From: a virus
IMG/VR virus record: IMGVR_UViG_3300042294_004161
Span: 35,131-99,130 of that record
DNA length: 64,000 bases
Direction: 5' to 3' (one strand)
The notes below the pieces were generated by a model. It saw only the letters and a program-made list of their open reading frames with translations, searched no databases and was not told where the DNA came from. Positions 5,641 through 58,780 of this stretch are shown here, piece after piece; the stretch's first letter is position 1; every line of letters starts with the position of its first letter. Made by a program: the position numbers and the translations under genes.

Positions 5641-5649
5641 ATATTTATA
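5641..5649 (+). promoter_or_regulatory. Putative late promoter ATATTTATA
   Basis: About 20 nt before the sheath start. Confidence 0.6.
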
Positions 5650-5668: not shown

Positions 5669-7774
5669 ATGGCAGAAACCTTAATATCCCCAGGCGTATT
5701 AGCACTGGAAAACGACAATTCATTCGTATCATCTCAACCAGTAACGGTTGGAGCAGCTATTATAGGACCAACAGTAAAAGGTCCAGTAGAAATTCCAACT
5801 ATTGTTACATCTTATAGTGAGTATCAAAACAAATTTGGTACTACATTCATAAGTGGTGGTCAAGTTCAAAGCTACTTTACATCAGTAGCAGCTTTCAATT
5901 ACTTTAACAACGGTGGTGAAACATTATTAGTAGCTAGAGTAGTAAGTGGATCATTCAATCCAGCTTCTTCTAGTATCTATAATTTAAATTTAGCTAGTAC
6001 AGCCTCTGTAAACGCTAATTTAACTTATGTTTCAGCTAGTGTAGCTGCTGTTGGTTCAGGTTCATTTAGTGTTAATGGTATTGAATTCTTCTTTACTGGA
6101 TCTACAGTAGCAAATACATCAACTAGAATATCTGTTAATACAGGTTCATTTGCAGCTAGTACAGCAGCAGATTATGCGGCTACTGCATCAGCAGTATTTA
6201 ATGTAAGTAAATCAATTGCCCCATACAGTACTGTATTATCTGGTATAACATCTTCAGTATCAGCATCAACTGGAATTAAATTAGATGCTGGTGTAGTAGG
6301 AGGTGAATTTAATTATTTATTATTAAATGAATTTACATTTACATCAGGAAGTACTGTTACTAAATTTAGTGGTGCTATAGGTACTGAAGCTTTAGAATTA
6401 AAAACTATTTCTGAAGGAAATATAATGAATAATGCTGGACCTACAGGATCTAACAATTCATTAATATCAGGATCAGCAGATAATGTAAGATGGCAAATTA
6501 CAAACAGAGACACAGCCTCAGGTACATTTAGTTTATTAATCAGAAGAGGTGACGATGATAATATCAATCCAGTTGTATTAGAAACATGGACTAACTTATC
6601 ATTAGACCCAACCCAACCAAACTATGTATCTAAAGTAATTGGTAATCAATTCCAACAATTTAGTTCACAAGATAATCAGATTGAGGTAATTGGTGATTTT
6701 CCAACAAGATCAAGATACGTCTATGTAGCATCAGTAAATTCTCCAACTCCTTTCTATTTAGGAAACAATGGTTTAGCTAAATCTGAATTTACTTCATCTA
6801 TACCTTTCAATACCAATGGAACATTTGGTGGAGCAACAGGTGATTTATTTTATGGTGGAGGAGCTGATTATCATAATAACATTAATAGTGCTACAACTGC
6901 ACCTCAAGGTATCTCATCCTCAGATTATAATGGTATGATTAACTTATTAGCTAATGCTGATGATTATAGATTTAATGTATTGGTAGTTCCTGGTTTATTT
7001 GCTTCAACAGCAGATTTAGGTGCTTCACAAATAACAGCTATTATTAATAACACTCAAAATAGAGGTGATTCTATTTATATATCTGATTTAGTACCATTTG
7101 GTTCAAATATAGGTGATGTTACAACTCAAGCAAATGCTAAAAACACATCATATGCTGCTACATATTGGCCTTGGGTTCAAACAATTGACCCAGACTCAGC
7201 TCAATTAGTATGGGTTCCAGCATCAACAATGATGGTAGGTGTTTACGCTTATAATGATAATGTAAGTGAGCCTTGGTTCGCCCCAGCTGGTATTAACAGA
7301 GGTGGATTAGGAAATGTAATAAGAGCTGAAAAGAAATTAACTCAAGCTAACCGTGATACTTTATATTCAAATAAAGTAAATCCAATAGCAACATTCCCAG
7401 GAACTGGAATAGTAGCATATGGTCAGAAAACATTACAAACTAAAGCCTCAGCTCTTGATAGAGTAAATGTTCGTAGATTATTAATTTCTCTTAAGTCTTA
7501 TATTTCTCAAGTAGCACAAAACTTAGTATTTGAACAAAACACAATTGCTACAAGAAATCAATTCTTAAGTCAAGTAAATCCATATCTAGAATCAGTACAA
7601 CAACGTCAAGGTTTATATGCTTTCAAAGTAATTATGGATGATAGTAATAATACTGCTGATGTAATTGATAGAAACCAGATGGTAGGTCAGATTTATATTC
7701 AACCAACTAAAACAGCTGAATTTATTTATCTAGATTTCAACATCTTACCAACAGGCGCAGTATTTCCCGCTTAA
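5669..7774 (+). CDS. Contractile tail sheath protein (T4 gp18-like)
   Basis: ISPGV..END, PWFAPAG.NRG, NPIATFPG.G...GQKTL, DRVNVRRLL, FEQN, IQPTKTAEFI. Confidence 0.95.
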   Translation: MAETLISPGVLALENDNSFVSSQPVTVGAAIIGPTVKGPVEIPTIVTSYSEYQNKFGTTFISGGQVQSYFTSVAAFNYFNNGGETLLVARVVSGSFNPASSSIYNLNLASTASVNANLTYVSASVAAVGSGSFSVNGIEFFFTGSTVANTSTRISVNTGSFAASTAADYAATASAVFNVSKSIAPYSTVLSGITSSVSASTGIKLDAGVVGGEFNYLLLNEFTFTSGSTVTKFSGAIGTEALELKTISEGNIMNNAGPTGSNNSLISGSADNVRWQITNRDTASGTFSLLIRRGDDDNINPVVLETWTNLSLDPTQPNYVSKVIGNQFQQFSSQDNQIEVIGDFPTRSRYVYVASVNSPTPFYLGNNGLAKSEFTSSIPFNTNGTFGGATGDLFYGGGADYHNNINSATTAPQGISSSDYNGMINLLANADDYRFNVLVVPGLFASTADLGASQITAIINNTQNRGDSIYISDLVPFGSNIGDVTTQANAKNTSYAATYWPWVQTIDPDSAQLVWVPASTMMVGVYAYNDNVSEPWFAPAGINRGGLGNVIRAEKKLTQANRDTLYSNKVNPIATFPGTGIVAYGQKTLQTKASALDRVNVRRLLISLKSYISQVAQNLVFEQNTIATRNQFLSQVNPYLESVQQRQGLYAFKVIMDDSNNTADVIDRNQMVGQIYIQPTKTAEFIYLDFNILPTGAVFPA

Positions 7775-7860: not shown

Positions 7861-8349
7861 ATGGCAATATTAGATCCAAACGAAATATTTTTCACCGCTT
7901 TTGAACCAAAACAAGCTAACCGATTCATCATGTATATTGATGGTATCCCTGCTTATGAAATCAAAGGGGTAAGTGCAGTAAGTTTAACTCAAGGTACCGT
8001 AGCTTTAAATCATATTAACGTACAACGTTTTGTTAAAGGCAAATCTACTTGGGGACCAATTACATTCACATTATTTGATCCAATCACACCTTCAGGTGCT
8101 CAAGCAGTAATGGAATGGGTACGTTTACATCACGAATCAGTAACTGGTAGAGATGGTTATAGTGATTTCTACAAGAAAGACTTAACATTTGATGTATTAG
8201 GACCAGTAGGTGATATTGTATCAGAGTGGATTATTAAAGGTGCTTTAATTACTGAAGCTAATTTTGGCGATTATAACTGGGATACAGTAGATACAGCTAT
8301 TAACATTACAATGACAGTACAACCAGATTACTGTGTATTAAATTTCTAA
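7861..8349 (+). CDS. Tail tube protein (T4 gp19-like)
   Basis: EPKQANRF, W.PITFTLFDPI, MEW, YKKD..F.VL.P.G.IVSEW.IKGA; follows sheath. Confidence 0.9.
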   Translation: MAILDPNEIFFTAFEPKQANRFIMYIDGIPAYEIKGVSAVSLTQGTVALNHINVQRFVKGKSTWGPITFTLFDPITPSGAQAVMEWVRLHHESVTGRDGYSDFYKKDLTFDVLGPVGDIVSEWIIKGALITEANFGDYNWDTVDTAINITMTVQPDYCVLNF

Positions 8350-8371
8350 TTATTTTTACTTTTATTTTTAA

Positions 8372-8407
8372 AGAGAACTTGGCTATGTCAAGTTCTTTTT
8401 TTATGTT
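8372..8407 (+). terminator. Terminator hairpin overlapping a CTTGG-N19-TATGTT promoter-like element
   Basis: AGAACTTGGC-TAT-GTCAAGTTCT plus T-run; CTTGG 8378-8382, TATGTT 8402-8407. Confidence 0.65.
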
Positions 8408-8410
8408 ATA

Positions 8411-8764
8411 ATATTATAGGGAAAGTTCTTTGACATTATGTTTAACAATTTAAATTAAAAAATATGACAACATTCTATTTTGTATTAGGTATGGTTGTAG
8501 TCTTGGTAATAGCTGAGGTTATAGCTATGGTTATAGCAATTAAAATAATTAATTCACTAAACCAACAAGTAACAAATTTTAAAAATGAATTAAGATCAAT
8601 TTATGAAGATTTTAATAATTTAAGACGAGATACAGATCAACAATTTCAAGAAGTTTATCGACAAATTGATTCTCGATTAGATAAATTAGAAACTAGGTTA
8701 ACAACATCACCAAAACAAGTTATAAAAGGATAAAAAATCGTTAAAGAACTTTCTCCTATAATAT
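8411..8764. repeat. ~25 bp imperfect inverted repeat (arms 8411-8434 and 8740-8764) enclosing ORF 8464-8733
   Basis: ATATTATAGGGAAAGTTCTTTGAC vs GTTAAAGAACTTTCTCCTATAATAT; one bulge and one G-U pair. Confidence 0.85.
8464..8733 (+). CDS. Small membrane-anchored coiled-coil protein
   Basis: Hydrophobic residues ~4-28, then heptads ending IDSRLDKLE. Confidence 0.7.
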   Translation: MTTFYFVLGMVVVLVIAEVIAMVIAIKIINSLNQQVTNFKNELRSIYEDFNNLRRDTDQQFQEVYRQIDSRLDKLETRLTTSPKQVIKG

Positions 8765-8769
8765 TTATA
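8761..8769 (+). promoter_or_regulatory. Putative late promoter ATATTTATA
   Basis: Upstream of 8798; overlaps the 3' arm of the inverted repeat. Confidence 0.55.
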
Positions 8770-8797
8770 ATAAATAAAGTTACATTAAATAAAAATT

Positions 8798-9523
8798 ATG
8801 ACAGAATTTAAATTCCCTACAGAAATTGTAGAATTACCTTCAAAAGGTTTAGTATATCCTGAAGGTTCTCTTTTAGCAGAAGGTAAAATTGAAATGAAAT
8901 ACATGACTGCTAAAGAAGAAGATATTCTTACAAACCAAGCTTACATTAAACAAGGTACAGTTTTAGATAAGCTATTACAATCTTTAATTGTAAGTAAAAT
9001 TAACTATGATGATTTAATTGTAGGTGATAAAAATGCATTATTTATTGCAGCTCGTATTTTAGGTTATGGTAAAGATTATACCTTTTCATACAATGGAGAA
9101 GAAATTACAGTAGATTTATCATCTTTAAATAATAAACCATTTAATGAATCTTTAGTTACTAAGGGTTTAAATGAATTCCATTTTACACTTCCATCTTCAC
9201 AAACAAAAATTACTTTTAAAATTCTTACAAGTGGGGATGATAGAAAAATTGATACTGAAATAACAGGACTAAAGAAAATCAATAAAGATGCATCTCCAGA
9301 ATTATCTACTCGTCTAAAATATATTATTACATCTGTTAATGGAGATAAAGATGAAAAAACAATTCGTGAATTTGTAGATAATTACTTATTAGCTCGAGAC
9401 TCTAGAGCTTTAAGAGAATATATTAAACAAATTCAACCTGATGTTGATTTAACTTATATTACTGATGGTGGTGAGGAGGTCACTATTCCAATTAATTTAA
9501 ACTTTTTTTGGCCTGACATTTGA
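8798..9523 (+). CDS. Baseplate hub/tail assembly chaperone (T4 gp26-like; position of lambda gpG)
   Basis: VELPSKG..YP, MTAKEEDIL, GDKNALFIAARILGYG, C-terminal NFFWP; lies between tube and tape measure. Confidence 0.75.
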   Translation: MTEFKFPTEIVELPSKGLVYPEGSLLAEGKIEMKYMTAKEEDILTNQAYIKQGTVLDKLLQSLIVSKINYDDLIVGDKNALFIAARILGYGKDYTFSYNGEEITVDLSSLNNKPFNESLVTKGLNEFHFTLPSSQTKITFKILTSGDDRKIDTEITGLKKINKDASPELSTRLKYIITSVNGDKDEKTIREFVDNYLLARDSRALREYIKQIQPDVDLTYITDGGEEVTIPINLNFFWPDI

Positions 9524-9826: not shown

Positions 9827-9835
9827 ATATTTATA
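9827..9835 (+). promoter_or_regulatory. Putative late promoter ATATTTATA
   Basis: Just before the tape measure start. Confidence 0.55.
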
Positions 9836-9851
9836 AATAAATAATATTTAA

Positions 9852-12539
9852 ATGGCAACTCCTGAGGAAATACAAAAATTACTTAAAGACTTAGAAAAAG
9901 TTTATAAAGAATTAGGTACTAAAAATCCATTTGCTAATTTTGATGCTTCTAAAGTTTCAGATGCTAGTGCAGCTGTTGCTATTCTTAATGCAGGATTAAG
10001 AGATGCTAAACGAGAATTAAATGACATAAATGGGGATTTAAATGATACTGTCACAGCTTTTAAAAAAACAGTTGATGAAATTAAAAATACTAACTCAGGT
10101 CTTACATTAGCCTCTAAAACATTTAGTGGTTTAAGTGATATAGCTCGAAAATTAAAATCAGACCAAGCTGGAATTAATGAACTTTCAGGAAAAGAATTAA
10201 AAACATTACAAAAACAAGCTAAAGAAAAACGAGAAGATTTAATAGTTTCTAAAGATCTTCTTACATCCAGAATTTCAGAATTAAAAGAACTAGAAAAAAA
10301 AGGTGAATTAAATAAAAAAAATGAAAAAGAATTAATTCAATCTATAAATGCGGCTAAAGCTATTAAAAATGAATTAAGAGAACAAGATACTCTTTCTGCT
10401 TTAATTAATGGTAGATTAAATCAACGTATAAAACAAGAAGAAAGAATTGAAGGATTACTAGGTTTAGGTGGCGCCTCTATAGAAGGTGCTAAAAAAGCAT
10501 TAGATAAATTAGGTTTTGGAGGATTAGCAAATGCCCTTGGTTTAGATAAAGTCAAGGAGAAAATGGAAGAAGTAGCTGAGACTACAGAAAAATCTGAAGG
10601 ATATACTGGAGGATTTTCTGATAAAATGAAAGTACTTAAATCAGGAATTTCTGAAGCTGGGGTTCAATTTAAAAAATCTTTAACAGATCCAACAGTAGTT
10701 ACTACATTTTTAATTAATGAAATGGTATCTGCTCTTACCTCTGCTGATAAAGCTACAGGTGAATTAGCTAAATCTTTTGGTACTTCATATTCTGAGGCTA
10801 CATCATTAAGAAATGAGTTAAATACAGTAGCTAATTTAAGTGGTGATATAAATGTTAATACAGCAGCTCTCCAAAAATCATTAATAGCTATTAATAAAGA
10901 ATTTGGAACAGCATCAATGCTTAATGGTGAACTTCTTAAAGATTTCACTCAATTAACTACAGCAGCTGGTTATACTGAAGAGGCGGCATTAGGTTTATCT
11001 AAAATTACTGTAGCTACAGGTACAGATTTATCTGAAAATACATCTGAGATTTTAGGACAAGCAATGGCTTTTAATGCTACTAATAAGTTAGCTTTAAATG
11101 AAAAAGAAATTGTTGAAGGTGTAGCTAAAGCATCTGCAGCTACTACTTTATCTTTAGGAATGCAACCTAAAGAAATAGCTAAAGCTGTAGCCCAATCTAA
11201 AGCATTAGGTGTATCTTTACAACAAGTAGAACAAATAGCTAATTCATTACTTAATTTTGAACAATCTATTTCATCTGAATTAGAAGCAGAATTATTAACA
11301 GGTAAAGAACTTAATTTAGAAGAAGCAAGAAGATTTGCACTTAATAATGATATAGCTGGAGTAGCTAGAGAAATAGCAAAACAAATAGGAACAGCTGCTG
11401 ATTTTACTAAAATGAATGTTATTCAACAAGAAGCATTAGCAAAGTCTGTTGGAATGACTCGTGAAGATTTAGCTAACTCTTTAATAGAAAGAGAAGCATT
11501 AGCTAAAATTGGTAAAGGAGAAACAAATGCTCTAGAAGCATATAATAGACTTAAAAAAGAAGGACTATCTGATGACCAAATAGCAGCTAGATTAGGAGAT
11601 GAAAAATTAGCAACTCAATTAAAATCTCAATCAGTTCAAGAACGTTTTAATGCCTCAGTTGAAAAATTAAGAGAAATTTTTGTTAGTTTAGCAGAACCTG
11701 TTTTACAAATAATATCTCCATTTATGGATTTAGCAACAACAATATTACCTTTAATTAATATAGCATTAACTCCAATTACAGGAATTCTTAAATTTTTAGG
11801 AGAATCAATCCAATTTACTTTAGGATTAATAAGATCACTTTTAAAAGAAATTGGAGATCTTTTAAGCCCATTAACTAATATTCTTAATCCTTTATTTAAA
11901 GGCTTTTCAGAATTTGTAGAACAATCTAAAATTTTAAATACAATTTTAGAAGTCACAAAATCTATAGTAGGATCTATTGTTATTGCTTACGGAGCAATAG
12001 CAGCTTATAATGCAACTGCTAGTTTTTTTGCTGGACTAAGAGCAAAAGCTGAACAATCAACAGAAAAATCTTTAATTAGACAAGGTATTGTTATGTTAAA
12101 AAATTTAGGAACAGCTATTTTAGAGGCTGTTGCTAAAGTTACAGGAGCTAGTGCTGCTACTTTAGGAGTTGCTGCCGGCATAGCAGCAGTCGCCGGAGCT
12201 TCAGCTTACGCTTTTTTAAATAGCAAAAAAGGTAATGATATAATATCCCCAGGATATGGTGAACGTACATTATTCGGTCCAGAAGGAGCAATAGCATTAA
12301 ATAATAAAGATACAGTAATAGCAGGTACTAGTTTGTTTGGAGAAAATAAAAATCAATCAATAAATGAATCTACATCTGCATCTCCCTCATCCCCCTCAAT
12401 TAACTTATCACCATTAATTGAACGTATGATGGCTGTAGAAAATGTATTAGTACAAATTCTAAATAAAGAAGGTGGAGTATATTTAGATGGTACTAAAGTA
12501 GGTACAGCAATGGCTGTAAGTACTTACAGAGTTCAATAA
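9852..12539 (+). CDS. Tape measure protein
   Basis: 895 aa, Ala/Leu/Lys-rich helical, hydrophobic C-terminal segments; follows the chaperones. Confidence 0.85.
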   Translation: MATPEEIQKLLKDLEKVYKELGTKNPFANFDASKVSDASAAVAILNAGLRDAKRELNDINGDLNDTVTAFKKTVDEIKNTNSGLTLASKTFSGLSDIARKLKSDQAGINELSGKELKTLQKQAKEKREDLIVSKDLLTSRISELKELEKKGELNKKNEKELIQSINAAKAIKNELREQDTLSALINGRLNQRIKQEERIEGLLGLGGASIEGAKKALDKLGFGGLANALGLDKVKEKMEEVAETTEKSEGYTGGFSDKMKVLKSGISEAGVQFKKSLTDPTVVTTFLINEMVSALTSADKATGELAKSFGTSYSEATSLRNELNTVANLSGDINVNTAALQKSLIAINKEFGTASMLNGELLKDFTQLTTAAGYTEEAALGLSKITVATGTDLSENTSEILGQAMAFNATNKLALNEKEIVEGVAKASAATTLSLGMQPKEIAKAVAQSKALGVSLQQVEQIANSLLNFEQSISSELEAELLTGKELNLEEARRFALNNDIAGVAREIAKQIGTAADFTKMNVIQQEALAKSVGMTREDLANSLIEREALAKIGKGETNALEAYNRLKKEGLSDDQIAARLGDEKLATQLKSQSVQERFNASVEKLREIFVSLAEPVLQIISPFMDLATTILPLINIALTPITGILKFLGESIQFTLGLIRSLLKEIGDLLSPLTNILNPLFKGFSEFVEQSKILNTILEVTKSIVGSIVIAYGAIAAYNATASFFAGLRAKAEQSTEKSLIRQGIVMLKNLGTAILEAVAKVTGASAATLGVAAGIAAVAGASAYAFLNSKKGNDIISPGYGERTLFGPEGAIALNNKDTVIAGTSLFGENKNQSINESTSASPSSPSINLSPLIERMMAVENVLVQILNKEGGVYLDGTKVGTAMAVSTYRVQ

Positions 12540-12544
12540 TTTTA

Positions 12545-12553
12545 ATATTTATA
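12545..12553 (+). promoter_or_regulatory. Putative late promoter ATATTTATA
   Basis: Upstream of baseplate-region genes. Confidence 0.55.
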
Positions 12554-15411: not shown

Positions 15412-18372
15412 ATGGGAAACATAGTAGGGGAAGGTTTTGATCAAATAATTATAGATCAAATAAATCAAAGACAAAAAATATATGGTTCTATTAATAGAAC
15501 TAATGAAATATTAAATTACATAAATAATAAAACAGGTTGGTGTCGTTTAGTATCATCGGTTGATGTTGTTGTACCTCCTCCAAATAGAAACTTACCTAAT
15601 AGAGGTGTAGACCTTGCTAAAAATTTTATTTTATTTAATGGCACTTCATTCCAAGGGAATCAACAAAGAGGAGGAGTATGGCCTGGTACAGATGATCCTA
15701 GTTTTAATGACTATGCTTATGGTATGGGAGGTACTAATTTTGGATTACGTCCAATGCCTGGTATTACTCAAGCAACAATAAAAACAGAAACTAGAGGTTC
15801 TCTTAAAACAGCAACAATTAATATTAAAGCAAATAATAGAGAACAATTTGATATAATTGATGTTCTTTATCTTCGTTTAGGATATACAATGTTATTAGAA
15901 TGGGGTAGTAGTTCTTATTTTAGAAATAATGGAGATTATGAATCTAATAATTCTAATAGTTTAGTAAATGATTTTTTAAACGCAGGCCCCGCTACCCCAC
16001 CTAGTCCTACTTCAAGTACAAATCCAAATATTACAAATATTACAAATAATCCTTTAGTCTTTCAAACACCCCAACTTATTACAGGAAATACAACACCATC
16101 AAACACAAATAAAATTTTTAGTTATGCCAATTATCCTGAAAAGATTAAAGAAAAAAGATTAGAAGCTGTAGGTAATTATGATGCTATTATAGGTAAAGTA
16201 GTTAATTTTAATTGGACTTTTACAAAAGATGGAACCTATGATATTACTGTAATTTTAAGAAGTATGGGAGATGTAATTGAATCTCTTAAAACAAATATTC
16301 TACTTCCTGGAACTACAATTAATACTAATTCTGGAGATACTCAACCATCTGATAAACCAATTGAAGTAATTAAATCCTTTTCAGAAATTCATAGTATAGG
16401 AAAAGAATTTTATAGATTACAACAAAAACTCCCTTCAGCAAATACTCAAGGTGGGGGCATATTTAGAATTTTAGCTAAGTCTCAAGACAAAAATAATATG
16501 GCTTTTGAAGACAATAGTATTGATCCAAATTCAGTTATAGCTTTTTCTCAAATATATAGTGGAGAAGGTGGAGGTACTCATTATTATATTCGTTTAGGAT
16601 ATTTTTTAAAATTTTTAGAAAGAAAAATTATTCCTTATGTAAATATACCAGAAGTAGCTTTAATGGAATTTGATACAGATGTTAGGTCTAATATTATATA
16701 TTTACAAGCTCGACAAATTAGTAATAATCCAGGAATATGTGTAATTAATACTACTATAACTTTTAATGAAAATGGAAAAGAAGTAAAATTTGCTCCTGGT
16801 TGTGATCAGTTTAAAACTACATTACCTGGTAGTAAAAATACATATGGAAGAATAATGAATATTTATTTTGATATGGCTTGGATATTAACTACTATGGATT
16901 CATTAAAAGATAAAGATGGAAAAATATCATTATATTCCTTATTAGAAAGTATTTGTGATGGATGGAATACAGCAACAGGTAATTTTAATAAATTAGAACC
17001 AACAGTAGAAGAAAAAACAATACGTTTTATAGATGAAACAGCTCTTCCTGATAGAGATAGATGGTTAGAATTATTAGGTCAATCTGTAAAACCTGCGTTT
17101 TTTGATGTATATGGTTTATATCCTAGTAATCAAACAGCAGGATTTATTAAAGATTTAAGTTTTAATACAACTGTACCTCCAAATTTAGCTACTATGATTA
17201 CTATAGGAGCTACTTCTAAAGGATATGTTGTAGGACAAGATTCAACTGCTTTATCTCGAATGAATGCAGGTTTTACAGATAGATTTAAAAAAAATATAGA
17301 ATTCTCAGAAGATAAATCACCTCCAGGAACTTCATCTATTATTAATAACTATTCAGAAGTATTAAAAAATTATAATACTTTTCTTTTAGAATTAGGATCT
17401 GTTGATGAAGGAAAACCAAACTGGAATCAAGAAGCTATAGATAACTTTACAAATACAGCTGAAACTTTTTATGAATATGATCAAGCTAAACAAACATTAG
17501 AAGCTGTTGGATTATCAAAAGATTTAGCTGTTAAAGTAGTATCAGGAGAAACAACTACATCAGTAGAAGATTATGTAAATTATTTATCATCAGCTCCTGC
17601 ATCTTCAATTGGATTTTTACCTTTTGATCTACAATTAATAATGGATGGCCTTTCTGGAATGAAAATATATCAAAAATATACAATTGATACTACTTATTTA
17701 CCTGCTAATTATCCAACATCATTAGAATTTTTAATTAAAGGAATAACTAATAATATTCAAAACAATGAATGGACTACTACTATAGAATCAATAGCTATAC
17801 CTAAAAATCCATTTGGTTCTGTTCTTGGGAAAGGGGCGGTTGGTAATGCTTCTCGAGATAATAATAGAGGTGCTGCTCCTACACCAACCGGATCTACACC
17901 AAACGCTAATAGATTAAGAACAATCTTAACAAGTTTAGGATACCGTGAAAAAGGTAGAGAATTATCTAACGGTGGAGATATTTCAAATGATCTAGTAAAT
18001 TATGCTGCTTCAGTATTTAGAGAAATTAAAAACCAACTTCCAAGTTTAATAATCACAGTAACTGGAGGTAATGATGCTTATCACCAAAGATTAGCTTACA
18101 AATCATCTCATACCTTGGGCCAAGGATTAGATTTTGTAATTTCTCCATTAACAATAGATAATAAAAATGCTGTTGATAAAATATTAGGAGGATTTGCAGC
18201 TGGTAACCAATCTAAAATTGTTAGCTTTATTAATGAATATGATTATCCATCTTCAGCAGCTACAGCAGGTCACTTCCATATTAGAATTGGAGGTAAAGTT
18301 GAAAGTAAAAGAATAGCTACATTTATAGCTCAAGCAAATAAAGGTCAATTAACAACATATCCAATAGTTTAA
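15412..18372 (+). CDS. Baseplate hub-like protein with a putative C-terminal M15-type peptidase domain
   Basis: 986 aa; PMPGI..GSLKTATI, LYLRLGYTMLLEWG; C-terminal SH-x6-D and HFH. Confidence 0.6.
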   Translation: MGNIVGEGFDQIIIDQINQRQKIYGSINRTNEILNYINNKTGWCRLVSSVDVVVPPPNRNLPNRGVDLAKNFILFNGTSFQGNQQRGGVWPGTDDPSFNDYAYGMGGTNFGLRPMPGITQATIKTETRGSLKTATINIKANNREQFDIIDVLYLRLGYTMLLEWGSSSYFRNNGDYESNNSNSLVNDFLNAGPATPPSPTSSTNPNITNITNNPLVFQTPQLITGNTTPSNTNKIFSYANYPEKIKEKRLEAVGNYDAIIGKVVNFNWTFTKDGTYDITVILRSMGDVIESLKTNILLPGTTINTNSGDTQPSDKPIEVIKSFSEIHSIGKEFYRLQQKLPSANTQGGGIFRILAKSQDKNNMAFEDNSIDPNSVIAFSQIYSGEGGGTHYYIRLGYFLKFLERKIIPYVNIPEVALMEFDTDVRSNIIYLQARQISNNPGICVINTTITFNENGKEVKFAPGCDQFKTTLPGSKNTYGRIMNIYFDMAWILTTMDSLKDKDGKISLYSLLESICDGWNTATGNFNKLEPTVEEKTIRFIDETALPDRDRWLELLGQSVKPAFFDVYGLYPSNQTAGFIKDLSFNTTVPPNLATMITIGATSKGYVVGQDSTALSRMNAGFTDRFKKNIEFSEDKSPPGTSSIINNYSEVLKNYNTFLLELGSVDEGKPNWNQEAIDNFTNTAETFYEYDQAKQTLEAVGLSKDLAVKVVSGETTTSVEDYVNYLSSAPASSIGFLPFDLQLIMDGLSGMKIYQKYTIDTTYLPANYPTSLEFLIKGITNNIQNNEWTTTIESIAIPKNPFGSVLGKGAVGNASRDNNRGAAPTPTGSTPNANRLRTILTSLGYREKGRELSNGGDISNDLVNYAASVFREIKNQLPSLIITVTGGNDAYHQRLAYKSSHTLGQGLDFVISPLTIDNKNAVDKILGGFAAGNQSKIVSFINEYDYPSSAATAGHFHIRIGGKVESKRIATFIAQANKGQLTTYPIV

Positions 18373-34651: not shown

Positions 34652-35836
34652 GTGAAATTTTTTTTCACTATATTATTACTAATATTCTCATTTACAAATA
34701 TAATGGGGCAAGGATTTAGTTATACTTATCTAGATCCTTGTACTCGTACATATAAAACAATTGTTATGCCTCGTAATCAACAAGGTATAACTGTTAATTA
34801 TTATGGTTATACAAATAATTTTAATCAAACCGATTTTTCTAATGGTAATTTTGAATCATGGATAAATCAAATTAGTCAATTAAATTCTTCTTCCCCTTGT
34901 GACCAAATAACATCCGCGGTTCAAACAAGTACAAATCAAATCATAACTCAAAACATAGTATCCACTTTAACAAGTATTACCTCTGCAACTGCAACTCAAA
35001 GTTTGAATATGGGTAATTTTAGTAATTTAGGTCCTTCTTCAAATAATTCAGGTTCAGGTAGTTCATCAAATAGTTCAAATTCATCTAATTCAGATAATTC
35101 ATCAAATACTGAAGGTAATGAAGAAGGTGGTGGAGGTGGTGGTGGAACAGCAAATTCCGTTTCTAATGCATCTGAAAGTACTTCAGAATCAAAAGAAGAT
35201 AAAAATTCAAAACCTCGTGTAGGTTCTTTAATAGGTACAGGTGATATTGTTGTAGTTAGAAACACAGACGACAGTAGGGACCAATTTAGAGGTACTATGT
35301 CTTTAACTAAAACTAACACAAATAATACAAGAGCTAAGGGTCTTTTAGCTAATTTTACAACATCTATTAACAATTCAAATATCACATTTTACACAGCATA
35401 TTCAAAAAAAAAGAATACTCTAATAATAGCAAATTCATCTATGATGGATTTTCAACGAAATATATTTAACACTACAACAGTATTAGAATCATATAAAATA
35501 AAACGATTATCTTTAATGGGTGGAATTAATTACACTCTAGGAGGTATTGGTAAATCTAGTTTCCAAAATCTATCAGCAATGGGTGGTGGGTTTTATTTGT
35601 TTAATTTAAATAAAAAAATACAAGTTACCACATTACTTTTAGCCGTGTATTCACCATATACCGTTTTTTATGAAGGACAATGGTGGAAATCATCCACATT
35701 AATAGTACCTTTTAGTTCTTGGGATTATGCATTAACTAAAACTTTTAAATTCAATATTAGTTTTTCAGGTACTTATGAAATAAATCAAAACTTTTTAAAC
35801 TATCAAATACTTACAGGAGGTAAAATCTTATTATGA
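34652..35836 (+). CDS. Exported protein with Ser/Asn/Gly linker and probable outer-membrane beta-barrel C-terminus
   Basis: Signal peptide; SSSN/GGGG linker; alternating beta-strand pattern ending LNYQILTGGKILL. Confidence 0.55.
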   Translation: MKFFFTILLLIFSFTNIMGQGFSYTYLDPCTRTYKTIVMPRNQQGITVNYYGYTNNFNQTDFSNGNFESWINQISQLNSSSPCDQITSAVQTSTNQIITQNIVSTLTSITSATATQSLNMGNFSNLGPSSNNSGSGSSSNSSNSSNSDNSSNTEGNEEGGGGGGGTANSVSNASESTSESKEDKNSKPRVGSLIGTGDIVVVRNTDDSRDQFRGTMSLTKTNTNNTRAKGLLANFTTSINNSNITFYTAYSKKKNTLIIANSSMMDFQRNIFNTTTVLESYKIKRLSLMGGINYTLGGIGKSSFQNLSAMGGGFYLFNLNKKIQVTTLLLAVYSPYTVFYEGQWWKSSTLIVPFSSWDYALTKTFKFNISFSGTYEINQNFLNYQILTGGKILL

Positions 35837-58771: not shown

Positions 58772-58780
58772 ATATTTATA
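58772..58780 (+). promoter_or_regulatory. Putative late promoter ATATTTATA
   Basis: Upstream of the RHH gene. Confidence 0.45.

Follow-up and report, generated by a model that had tools for sequence, protein, structure and literature searches.

The transcripts of ribosomal RNA (rrn) operons are enclosed by leader-trailer helices, where long-range, covarying pairing of at least 17 base pairs (bp) surrounds the payload and a boxA stands on the leader side after a tRNA or a promoter; in a published model, binding of NusB/S10 tethers the leader strand at the polymerase exit and aids helix closure (PMC10250234). For boxA, the consensus GYTCTTTAANA has been published (PMC5725501), with the forms UGCUCUUUAACA in E. 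coli and AUGAUCUUUGAAA in B. subtilis (PMC13753749). A boxA is also present in the 5' untranslated region (UTR) of protein genes, tens to about 200 nucleotides (nt) from the start, as in the nutL/N leader of phage lambda and in E. coli suhB, where the Nus complex affects translation; in lambda, this effect is relieved by RNase III cutting the leader hairpin (PMC5725501). Further precedents are tRNA punctuation, where mRNAs are set free when the tRNAs on either side are excised, as is known from mitochondria, and the small stable RNAs encoded in the tRNA cluster of T4, as well as morons and T4-type PeSL cassettes, which are accessory genes between conserved structural genes of phages. In the hok/sok system, the 5' and 3' ends of a small membrane-protein mRNA pair with each other, and this fold-back includes stabilisation of the full-length RNA. 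Here, we describe an element that combines known devices, namely leader-trailer helix, boxA and tRNA punctuation, in a mobile phage mRNA cassette. It was analysed in positions 35,131 to 99,130 of the IMG/VR virus record IMGVR_UViG_3300042294_004161 (64,000 nt; hereafter the window, to whose first letter as position 1 all coordinates refer), which is part of a 99-kb viral contig of about 59% completeness. The cassette carries an open reading frame (ORF) of 89 amino acids (8464..8733, + strand) between the tail tube gene and a gene of 241 amino acids; the ORF has no family assignment. We consider it reasonably probable that the cassette represents a portable panhandle mRNA that would be cut out of a longer transcript, with both ends protected and possibly with Nus assistance.

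The helix enclosing the ORF is formed by a 5' (leader) strand at 8404..8434 (+), consisting of an AT-rich outer part (8404-8418) and an inner part (8419-8434), and a 3' (trailer) strand at 8740..8772 (+). A preceding reading of the DNA from its letters alone (the sequence-only reading) had proposed that the core arms 8411-8434 and 8740-8764 are complementary, and this was confirmed; the core pairs over 14 bp (G8432-U8742 included), followed by the bulged T8754 and another 10 bp, and is extendable to 31 pairs (8404-8434 / 8740-8772) with an energy of -35.0 kcal/mol as calculated by RNAduplex. Folding of 8405-8770, which that reading had named as a check, revealed the segment to be closed by the arm helix in both the minimum free energy and the centroid structure (z = -4.3; 0/100 shuffles). 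The next-best flank duplex among the 76 ORFs of at least 70 amino acids in the window was at -15.5 (mean -8.6, standard deviation 4.2), and shuffled flanks gave -8.8 ± 2.6, placing the cassette duplex at z ~ -10. We conclude that the arm helix is real and exceptional in the window. A window-wide scan for ungapped inverted repeats yielded nothing comparable to the cassette helix, which is itself missed by such a scan because of the bulge. A search of Rfam gave no match near any gathering score, and the arm repeat was found as a single copy in the 99-kb contig. Helix length was 24-35 bp with one bulge in the immuto-like lineage, named after the 160-kb Flavobacterium myophage vB_FspM_immuto as the closest cultured relative of the window phage, and 17-20 bp elsewhere; flanks complementary over at least about 17 bp were found in the window (31 pairs) as well as in relatives with a strong Shine-Dalgarno sequence (17 pairs), referred to as the Shine-Dalgarno type below.

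To place the cassette in its genomic context, loci were collected from IMG/VR, 42 via the small ORF and 80 via the tube protein. An empty tube-hub spacer of 85-150 nt was found in about 55 distinct immuto-like relatives, with immuto itself being of the empty type; it is made up of a terminator hairpin and T run, a ATATTnATATTTATA-type motif that is conserved, and the start of the hub gene. An occupied spacer of 450-465 nt was found in about 35 loci, where the small ORF without exception has the same orientation and immediately follows the tube gene. Comparison of empty and occupied spacers identifies the cassette as an insertion relative to immuto and the about 55 metagenomic relatives, which bears out the insertion into a tail operon claimed before. 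The pentamer ATATT flanks the cassette on both sides and is already duplicated in empty sites. Cassette sequences are 93-99% identical at the nucleotide level between phages whose tube genes are 72-84% and whose hub genes are 74-78% identical, and these identity values reveal horizontal exchange of the cassette. The exchanged high-identity tract covers the whole interval between the stop codon of the tube gene and the ATG of the hub gene, with terminator and promoter motif included, and is wider than the repeat, which points to recombination at the gene ends rather than to a repeat-bounded transposon. As an accessory gene between conserved structural genes that is present or absent and horizontally exchanged, the cassette resembles morons and PeSL cassettes; it differs from these in being bounded by an RNA-pairing inverted repeat instead of a promoter/terminator pair or direct repeats, and in having no terminator of its own.

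The tube-hub hot spot carries other cargo in relatives, including a DUF559 (Vsr-like) endonuclease, a KaiC/RecA-like ATPase and several proteins without family (L011:2034-2906, L103:3622-4422, L077:1205-1870, L074:3627-4265, L096:3549-4064, L078:2580-2825 and L019:3333-3886). This cargo has a promoter-like motif and a terminator, and none of it was found to have a terminal inverted repeat. An IMG/VR scan with the 5'-arm 15-mer for arms around other cargo returned mostly chance matches and the sliding-duplex filter was too noisy, so that no new cargo was established. In L011 and L040, the first ~110 nt past the tube stop codon contain a hairpin, AAGTTCTT-AATTC-AAGAACTT, built from the same core as the cassette arms. 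A strong hairpin with the promoter-like ATATGTATAAT in its loop comes next and immediately precedes the endonuclease gene. The former, local hairpin could represent a footprint left by the arms or their precursor.

A metagenome scan with the ORF alignment revealed at least 370 relatives, and 63 unique metagenome loci were analysed. Inside same-strand phage tRNA arrays were 29 of the 63 loci; distant ORF relatives (32-41% identity) were not found beside tube or hub genes. The ATG stands 37-44 nt past the 3' end of the preceding tRNA in 21 loci, and a gap of 21-33 nt separates the stop codon and the following tRNA in about 15 loci; in L395, the 5' arm starts one base past the end of tRNA-Thr and the 3' arm stops 6 nt short of tRNA-Asp. 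This tight inter-tRNA fit leaves no room for a promoter or terminator, and the claim of an upstream promoter does not hold for these relatives. Every tRNA-array copy is enclosed by a helix (17-20 bp). Since only about 0-5 nt separate the helix ends from the tRNAs, tRNA processing would define the ends of the mRNA. The cassette shares with tRNA punctuation and the RNAs of the T4 tRNA cluster the location of a coding RNA between tRNAs, and is distinguished from tRNA punctuation by the dedicated terminal helix of its mRNA and by its occurrence in bacteriophage tRNA arrays. In a limited literature search, no description was found of tRNA punctuation in bacteriophages or of such a mobile mRNA cassette.

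One and the same cassette variant was found between Thr|Asp, Leu|Ala and Leu|Met tRNA pairs in different contigs, which implies that the cassette moves between inter-tRNA spacers. The tRNA-array copies differ from the window copy, whose leader is A/U-rich, by a strong AGGAGG Shine-Dalgarno sequence, on account of which their hosts are probably not Bacteroidota. For the window phage lineage, Bacteroidota are the likely hosts. Other inter-tRNA segments of about 100 nt have complementary ends (GTAACG...CGTTAC) and no ORF (L421:2238-2352 and L391:973-1085), and RNAs that are set free from phage tRNA arrays may in general have terminal helices. Several tRNA-array loci contain phage-encoded transfer-messenger RNA genes at a distance of up to ~1 kb from the cassette (L413:373-760, L435:5-401 and L439:1011-1415).

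The arms were present in every occupied locus and were found to covary. In the lineage of L010, TGTAAGGG faces CCCCTTACA where TATAGGG faces CTCCTATA in the window, and in that of L012 an additional A in one arm is matched by an additional T in the other. The arm sequences of L080, L097 and L106, whose ORFs are 31-37% identical to that of the window, differ yet stay complementary. In an alignment of 30 sequences of the immuto-like set (alignment A1), standard pairs made up 97.1% of the cells versus 45-53% with slid partners, and double-sided changes were found at 9 of 23 pairs versus 2.4 ± 1.2 in shuffles (0/500). Across 8 lineages, cognate arm pairings were better than permuted ones (p = 5e-5). 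For 21 Shine-Dalgarno-type loci, RNAalifold predicted a 17-bp leader-trailer helix without any hint, with 12 pairs being compensatory, and the arms gave a mean of -25.4 kcal/mol in cognate versus -13.2 kcal/mol in non-cognate combination (0/20,000 permutations as good). Arm covariation across homologous loci, another check proposed by the sequence-only reading, was thus evident in both the immuto-like and the Shine-Dalgarno-type set, in each of which pairing is maintained by compensatory change.

The single G-U pair of the core had been taken as an indication of pairing in RNA, and besides the covariation two asymmetries between the arms speak for this view. Mismatches in + sense were of the G-U type in 51 and of the A-C type in 7 cases. 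Of 80 unique flank pairs, 23 have the exact GTTCTTT only in their 5' arm, and 2 have the exact complement only in their 3' arm. Where the 5' arm contains GTTCTTTGAC (30 loci), a perfect complement in the 3' arm was found twice, and G faces U in 28/30. All readable 3' variants (9/9) were A-to-G changes that keep a U-G pair (GAAGAAC, AGAGAAC, AAGGAAC, AAAGAGC and AAAGGAC), and the outer half of the helix varies freely between lineages. The extra 3'-arm base, i.e., the bulge at GGG/CCCC (T8754 in the window), was found in 25/25 unique arm pairs of the immuto-like lineage; since gene conversion would have erased the bulge, its persistence speaks against a DNA repeat. On these alignment counts, the observed asymmetry is what a + strand RNA helix predicts, rather than a DNA repeat that is read by a protein or kept by conversion.

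Within and at the inner end of the 5' strand lies the boxA-like element GGAAAGTTCTTTGACAT (8420..8436, +), to which the G of the conserved wobble G8432-U8742 belongs. GGAAAGTTCWTTRA has exactly one occurrence in the window. The resemblance to boxA noticed in the sequence-only reading holds against the rrn operons of Bacteroidota, with the window arm AAGTTCTTTGACAT matching the 16S-23S spacer motif AAGTTCATTGACAT of Flavobacteriaceae at 13/14 positions. A boxA-type motif was found in 30/30 examinable 16S-23S spacers, in the form A(A/C)GTTCATTGACAT in Flavobacteriia loci. In Bacteroidota rrn leaders, GTTCTTTGA-type motifs were found in about 40/96, mostly near -110, and were the commonest form where a motif was present; one leader has the identical 15-mer AAGTTCTTTGACATT. 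Flavobacterium rrn leaders have GGAAAGTTCATTGA after the first promoter and a second copy directly upstream of the strand pairing with the 16S trailer. In the Flavobacteriaceae loci examined (within L128-L246, e.g. L193, L149 and L128), the 16S-23S spacers contain GTTCATTGACATATTG, and the 16S leaders contain GTTCATTGAAAA or GTTCGTAGACAT directly upstream of ATTGAATTGACAGC, the partner of the 16S trailer GCTGTTAATTT, which looks like a clade-specific arrangement of boxA and leader-trailer helix. Two differences from rrn helices were noted: the payload of the cassette is a translated mRNA instead of a structural RNA, and the boxA-like element is inside the helix, at its inner end, instead of upstream, in a unit that is mobile in phages.

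Among the cassettes, GTTCTTT was retained in 60/80 of the 5' arms and GTTCTTT(G/A)A in 59/80, and the motif was kept where the 3' arm no longer pairs (L399, L403, L422 and L431). The distance from the GTTCTTT core to the ATG was 36-41 nt in the immuto-like lineage and 28-30 nt in Shine-Dalgarno lineages. The main cassette lineage, with GTTCTTTAATA, fits GYTCTTTAANA and most lineages fit GYTCTTT(A/G)ANA; the core is degenerate in a few lineages (L080 and, with CTCTAATTGAC, the L389 group). Judged by these matches, the sequence fits the boxA consensus of the host clade. The element is sense-oriented on the gene strand. Between helix and start codon, the leader (8435..8463, +) is A/U-rich and weakly structured, with local folding of the 5' UTR being no better than that of shuffles. 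Since the 5' UTR alone folds weakly, the element would be exposed until the trailer is transcribed, and it is paired once the trailer has been made. It probably binds a factor while single-stranded, with NusB/S10 as the obvious candidate.

Regarding transcription signals, the cassette is preceded by an intrinsic-terminator-like hairpin with a T run (8370..8404, +; 14 pairs in the terminator scan), and an equivalent hairpin after the tube gene was found in all sites, empty and occupied. The motif ATATTTATA at 8761..8769 (+) resembles a late promoter of the gene that follows; it overlaps with the outer end of the 3' strand and is present in the empty sites of relatives. Copies of ATATTTATA(A), 12/14 of which are on the + strand, precede the start codons of sheath, hub, tape measure and other genes by 11-30 nt (160-168, 5641-5649, 8761-8769, 9827-9835, 12545-12553 and 58772-58780), a distribution that makes ATATTTATA the likely late promoter motif of this phage group. 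Upstream of the window ORF, there is only a variant of this late motif, and no terminator was found after the ORF; a moron is characterised by a promoter and a terminator of its own, of which the cassette lacks the latter and probably also the former. A sigma-70-type promoter ending near 8407-8412, where the sequence-only reading had placed a promoter motif, appears doubtful, as Bacteroidota rrn promoters are of the TAnnTTTG type and no such motif was found ahead of the ORF. The TTGACA of the Shine-Dalgarno lineage was considered as a -35 box and rejected, with no usable -10 being present ahead of the ORF.

The panhandle mRNA is proposed on the basis of the helix, its covariation and strand asymmetry, the presence/absence pattern, the horizontal exchange and the two genomic contexts, all of which are established. 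In it, the 5' and 3' UTRs of a gene for a small bitopic membrane protein pair with each other. The cassette would ride in heavily transcribed units, either the tube-hub spacer of immuto-like Flavobacteriia myophages or, in many other uncultured phages, an inter-tRNA spacer of a tRNA array. The helix would close once the trailer is transcribed, and the mRNA would then be excised from the precursor. In tRNA arrays, tRNA 3'- and 5'-end processing would make these cuts exactly at the ends of the helix. The tail operon has no tRNAs, and its longer helix with the conserved bulge suits a double-strand-specific enzyme, for which host RNase III is an example; after such a cut, the ends of the tube and hub transcripts would be close to native. 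The paired ends would shield the mRNA, with its monophosphate 5' end and its hairpin-less 3' end, from 5'-end-dependent and 3' exonucleolytic decay, and the helix would keep the insertion from disturbing the neighbouring transcripts. NusB/S10 may bind GUUCUUU(G/A)A of the exposed 5' strand, which would hold the leader at the polymerase exit and promote helix closure. Cleavage, stabilisation, Nus binding and the role of the protein are steps that we infer. A more far-reaching version is put forward tentatively, as a possibility less probable than the panhandle itself: the cassette could be a miniature mimic of an rRNA operon acting as a portable "expression capsule", where boxA recruits host NusB/S10 to the polymerase and the leader strand is thereby kept at the RNA exit, the helix snaps shut when the trailer emerges, and the mRNA is released by tRNA-processing enzymes or RNase III with its ends sealed. 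If true, a gene without promoter and terminator would be usable from any busy site, such as tRNA arrays and structural operons, in phages of different host phyla and with its neighbours left undisturbed.

Several observations weigh against the panhandle mRNA. Because the terminator precedes the cassette, read-through into the cassette of the window may be low. The two RNA runs in which the stretch is represented, at a small share, consist of marine metatranscriptome contigs that derive from relatives, in most cases with an empty site. The 99-kb contig yielded no RNase III gene, and the enzyme would have to come from the host; in a control panel, this family was detected in Bacteroides. In the immuto-like set, duplex energies of the + and - strands did not reveal any asymmetry (means of -30.3 and -30.2 kcal/mol). 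The 5' arm is, moreover, similar to the 3' halves of the tube terminators of this family (CAAGCTCTTTTTT; CAAGTTCTTTTTTT in the window), and because of this resemblance part of the boxA likeness (AAG-Y-TCTTT) could be inherited instead of being selected as a Nus site. If NusB/S10 needs single-stranded RNA, the location in the helix limits boxA to a transient role.

The strongest competing explanation, to which we attach a distinctly lower probability than to the panhandle mRNA and which we regard as rather unlikely, puts the function into transcript elongation: a true boxA would load host NusB/S10 and the other Nus factors on RNA polymerase and would either render it resistant to termination across the cassette or tRNA array or repress co-transcriptional translation of the membrane protein, as in suhB and lambda N, the 3' strand would act as an anti-boxA that strips the complex and resets the polymerase, and end protection would be secondary. 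The 13/14 match to the rrn boxA of the host clade and the fit of most lineages to GYTCTTT(A/G)ANA are in line with this, as are the fixed 5' strand opposite a drifting 3' strand and the retention of the motif even when unpaired. The distance of 28-41 nt between motif and start codon falls within the 50-nt range applied in finding boxA-regulated genes (PMC5725501). In Flavobacteriaceae, the rrn boxA is immediately adjacent to the leader strand of the 16S leader-trailer helix, which implies that the arrangement in the cassette copies the rrn unit. However, relatives with empty sites manage without the element, only one such motif exists in the 64 kb, the likeness to the terminator 3' half offers a non-functional origin for part of the motif, and the core is degenerate in L080 and the L389 group. 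The parallel to lambda N and suhB, i.e., a boxA in the 5' UTR of a protein gene (in lambda, a phage gene), is incomplete; the cassette has neither a boxB-like hairpin nor an N-like gene, its partner strand is located beyond the stop codon instead of in the leader, and its motif has the Bacteroidota/Bacillus-type form GUUCUUUGA.

The remaining explanations are considered improbable to varying degrees. Arms that serve as terminal inverted repeats or recombination sites of a DNA-level element, similar to a miniature inverted-repeat transposable element or a cassette, and that are kept alike by one protein or by gene conversion, with RNA pairing being incidental, would account for their position near the boundaries of the inserted DNA as compared with empty sites, for the movement between phages and inter-tRNA spacers and for the DUF559 endonuclease gene that adjoins the cassette in some loci. 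This is improbable given that the exchanged tract is wider than the repeat, that the arms are not equivalent (G:T mismatch in 28/30; 23 versus 2; readable 3' variants all wobble-compatible), that the 1-nt bulge occurs in 25/25 arm pairs and that the outer arm sequences differ freely between lineages; the repeat is single-copy in the 99-kb contig, and no transposase or resolvase was found there. Slightly less probable still is a type I toxin-like module, where a hok-style fold-back keeps the mRNA of a toxic membrane peptide stable but inert until 3' processing. The N-terminal transmembrane segment and the pairing of the mRNA ends agree with it, the latter being the feature shared with hok/sok. 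Yet the start codon and leader are not sequestered, being unpaired in the centroid fold, and the strong Shine-Dalgarno sequence of relatives is exposed 5 nt past the helix; the protein has 69-128 residues with a conserved helix of ~55 residues, versus a peptide of ~50 amino acids, and the cassette occurs in tRNA arrays and tail operons of lytic phages. Neither a conserved antisense promoter nor an antisense RNA was noticed, with no systematic search made. In comparison with hok/sok, the cassette is thus distinguished by a non-occluded start, a longer protein with a coiled-coil-like helix and a lytic phage setting, and the hok-like silencing considered in the sequence-only reading is unlikely. 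Of the module proposed there, the RNA helix, the boxA likeness and the insertion are supported, and the promoter and the toxin are not supported. Invertons are common in Bacteroidota, and inverted repeats of 25-35 bp flanking a segment of ~330 bp would suit an invertible DNA switch that flips the ORF between the repeats. This explanation is close to refuted: 42/42 IMG/VR loci showed the same orientation relative to the tube gene, and likewise all metagenome loci whose context includes tube, hub or tRNA genes; in three lake metagenomes, DNA contigs run across the cassette in the orientation of the window, with no strand-changing joint among the joints listed, so that the check for inversion at the DNA level was negative in loci and contigs alike. 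No match to a resolvase or transposase family was obtained in the contig (about 59% complete), and the conserved G:T mismatch and bulge are unexpected in recombination cores.

The protein encoded by the cassette had been predicted to consist of a transmembrane segment and a coiled coil. The ORF was found to belong to a conserved family with length variants that differ by whole codons, which identifies it as real. AlphaFold2 modelled a single continuous helix (residues 2-81, mean pLDDT 84) with a hydrophobic N-terminal stretch of ~25 residues. The layout comprises a transmembrane segment with a conserved Glu and a long helix ending in YRQ(L/I)DSRLDKLE, where the DSRLDKLE region is invariant. 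Family members range from 69 to 128 amino acids and share the conserved helix of ~55 residues; the variants of 87, 89, 91 and 109 amino acids differ by in-frame repeats. In the 109-amino-acid variants (L011:2998-3324, L023, L024, L025 and L044), a unit of ~20 residues (RDNENQFNDVHRRIDDIH-like) is duplicated in frame in the middle of the helix, and the N-terminal membrane segment and the C-terminal DSRLDKLE region are unchanged. Searches of Pfam and PHROGs with the ORF and 18 family members returned only sub-threshold coiled-coil noise, and no homologue of the ORF was found among 50,697 cultured phage records. Leads to a spanin (phrog_739) and a BhlA holin (Atlas score 0.81) were weak and unconfirmed. 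As a guess, the protein could be a membrane-anchored oligomer in exclusion, lysis timing or host takeover.

Among the neighbouring genes in the window, the sheath gene (5669-7774) has ATATTTATA at 5641, ahead of its start codon. The tail tube gene (7861..8349, +; 162 amino acids) matches phrog_4542 with E = 7.6e-24, has an immuto homologue annotated as tail tube and forms the left edge of the insertion hot spot. Downstream of the cassette, the 241-amino-acid gene (8798..9523, +) matches phrog_150 with E = 9.5e-10 and is a baseplate hub subunit in the immuto annotation; its position ahead of the tape measure gene is that of a tail assembly chaperone. The tape measure gene (9852-12539) is again preceded by ATATTTATA, at 9827. 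A second inverted repeat of the window (17071-17099 / 17263-17291) is 29 nt long and 83% complementary, with the copies 163 nt apart and with the G+C-rich core AACCTGCGTT / AATGCAGGTT.

Being short, strongly covarying and present at no fewer than 370 metagenomic loci, the element is a candidate for a new RNA family, and the membrane protein that it encloses constitutes an unstudied phage gene family. The element could serve as a compact insulator and stabiliser part for expression in Bacteroidota, where such tools are few. If the proposed panhandle mRNA is correct, the cassette would provide an example of tRNA punctuation in bacteriophages and would extend the leader-trailer helix and boxA of rRNA operons to a protein-coding, horizontally mobile unit. 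It would then represent a new way for phages to express accessory genes, by means of an mRNA that has its own end protection and excision signal and relies on borrowed transcription.

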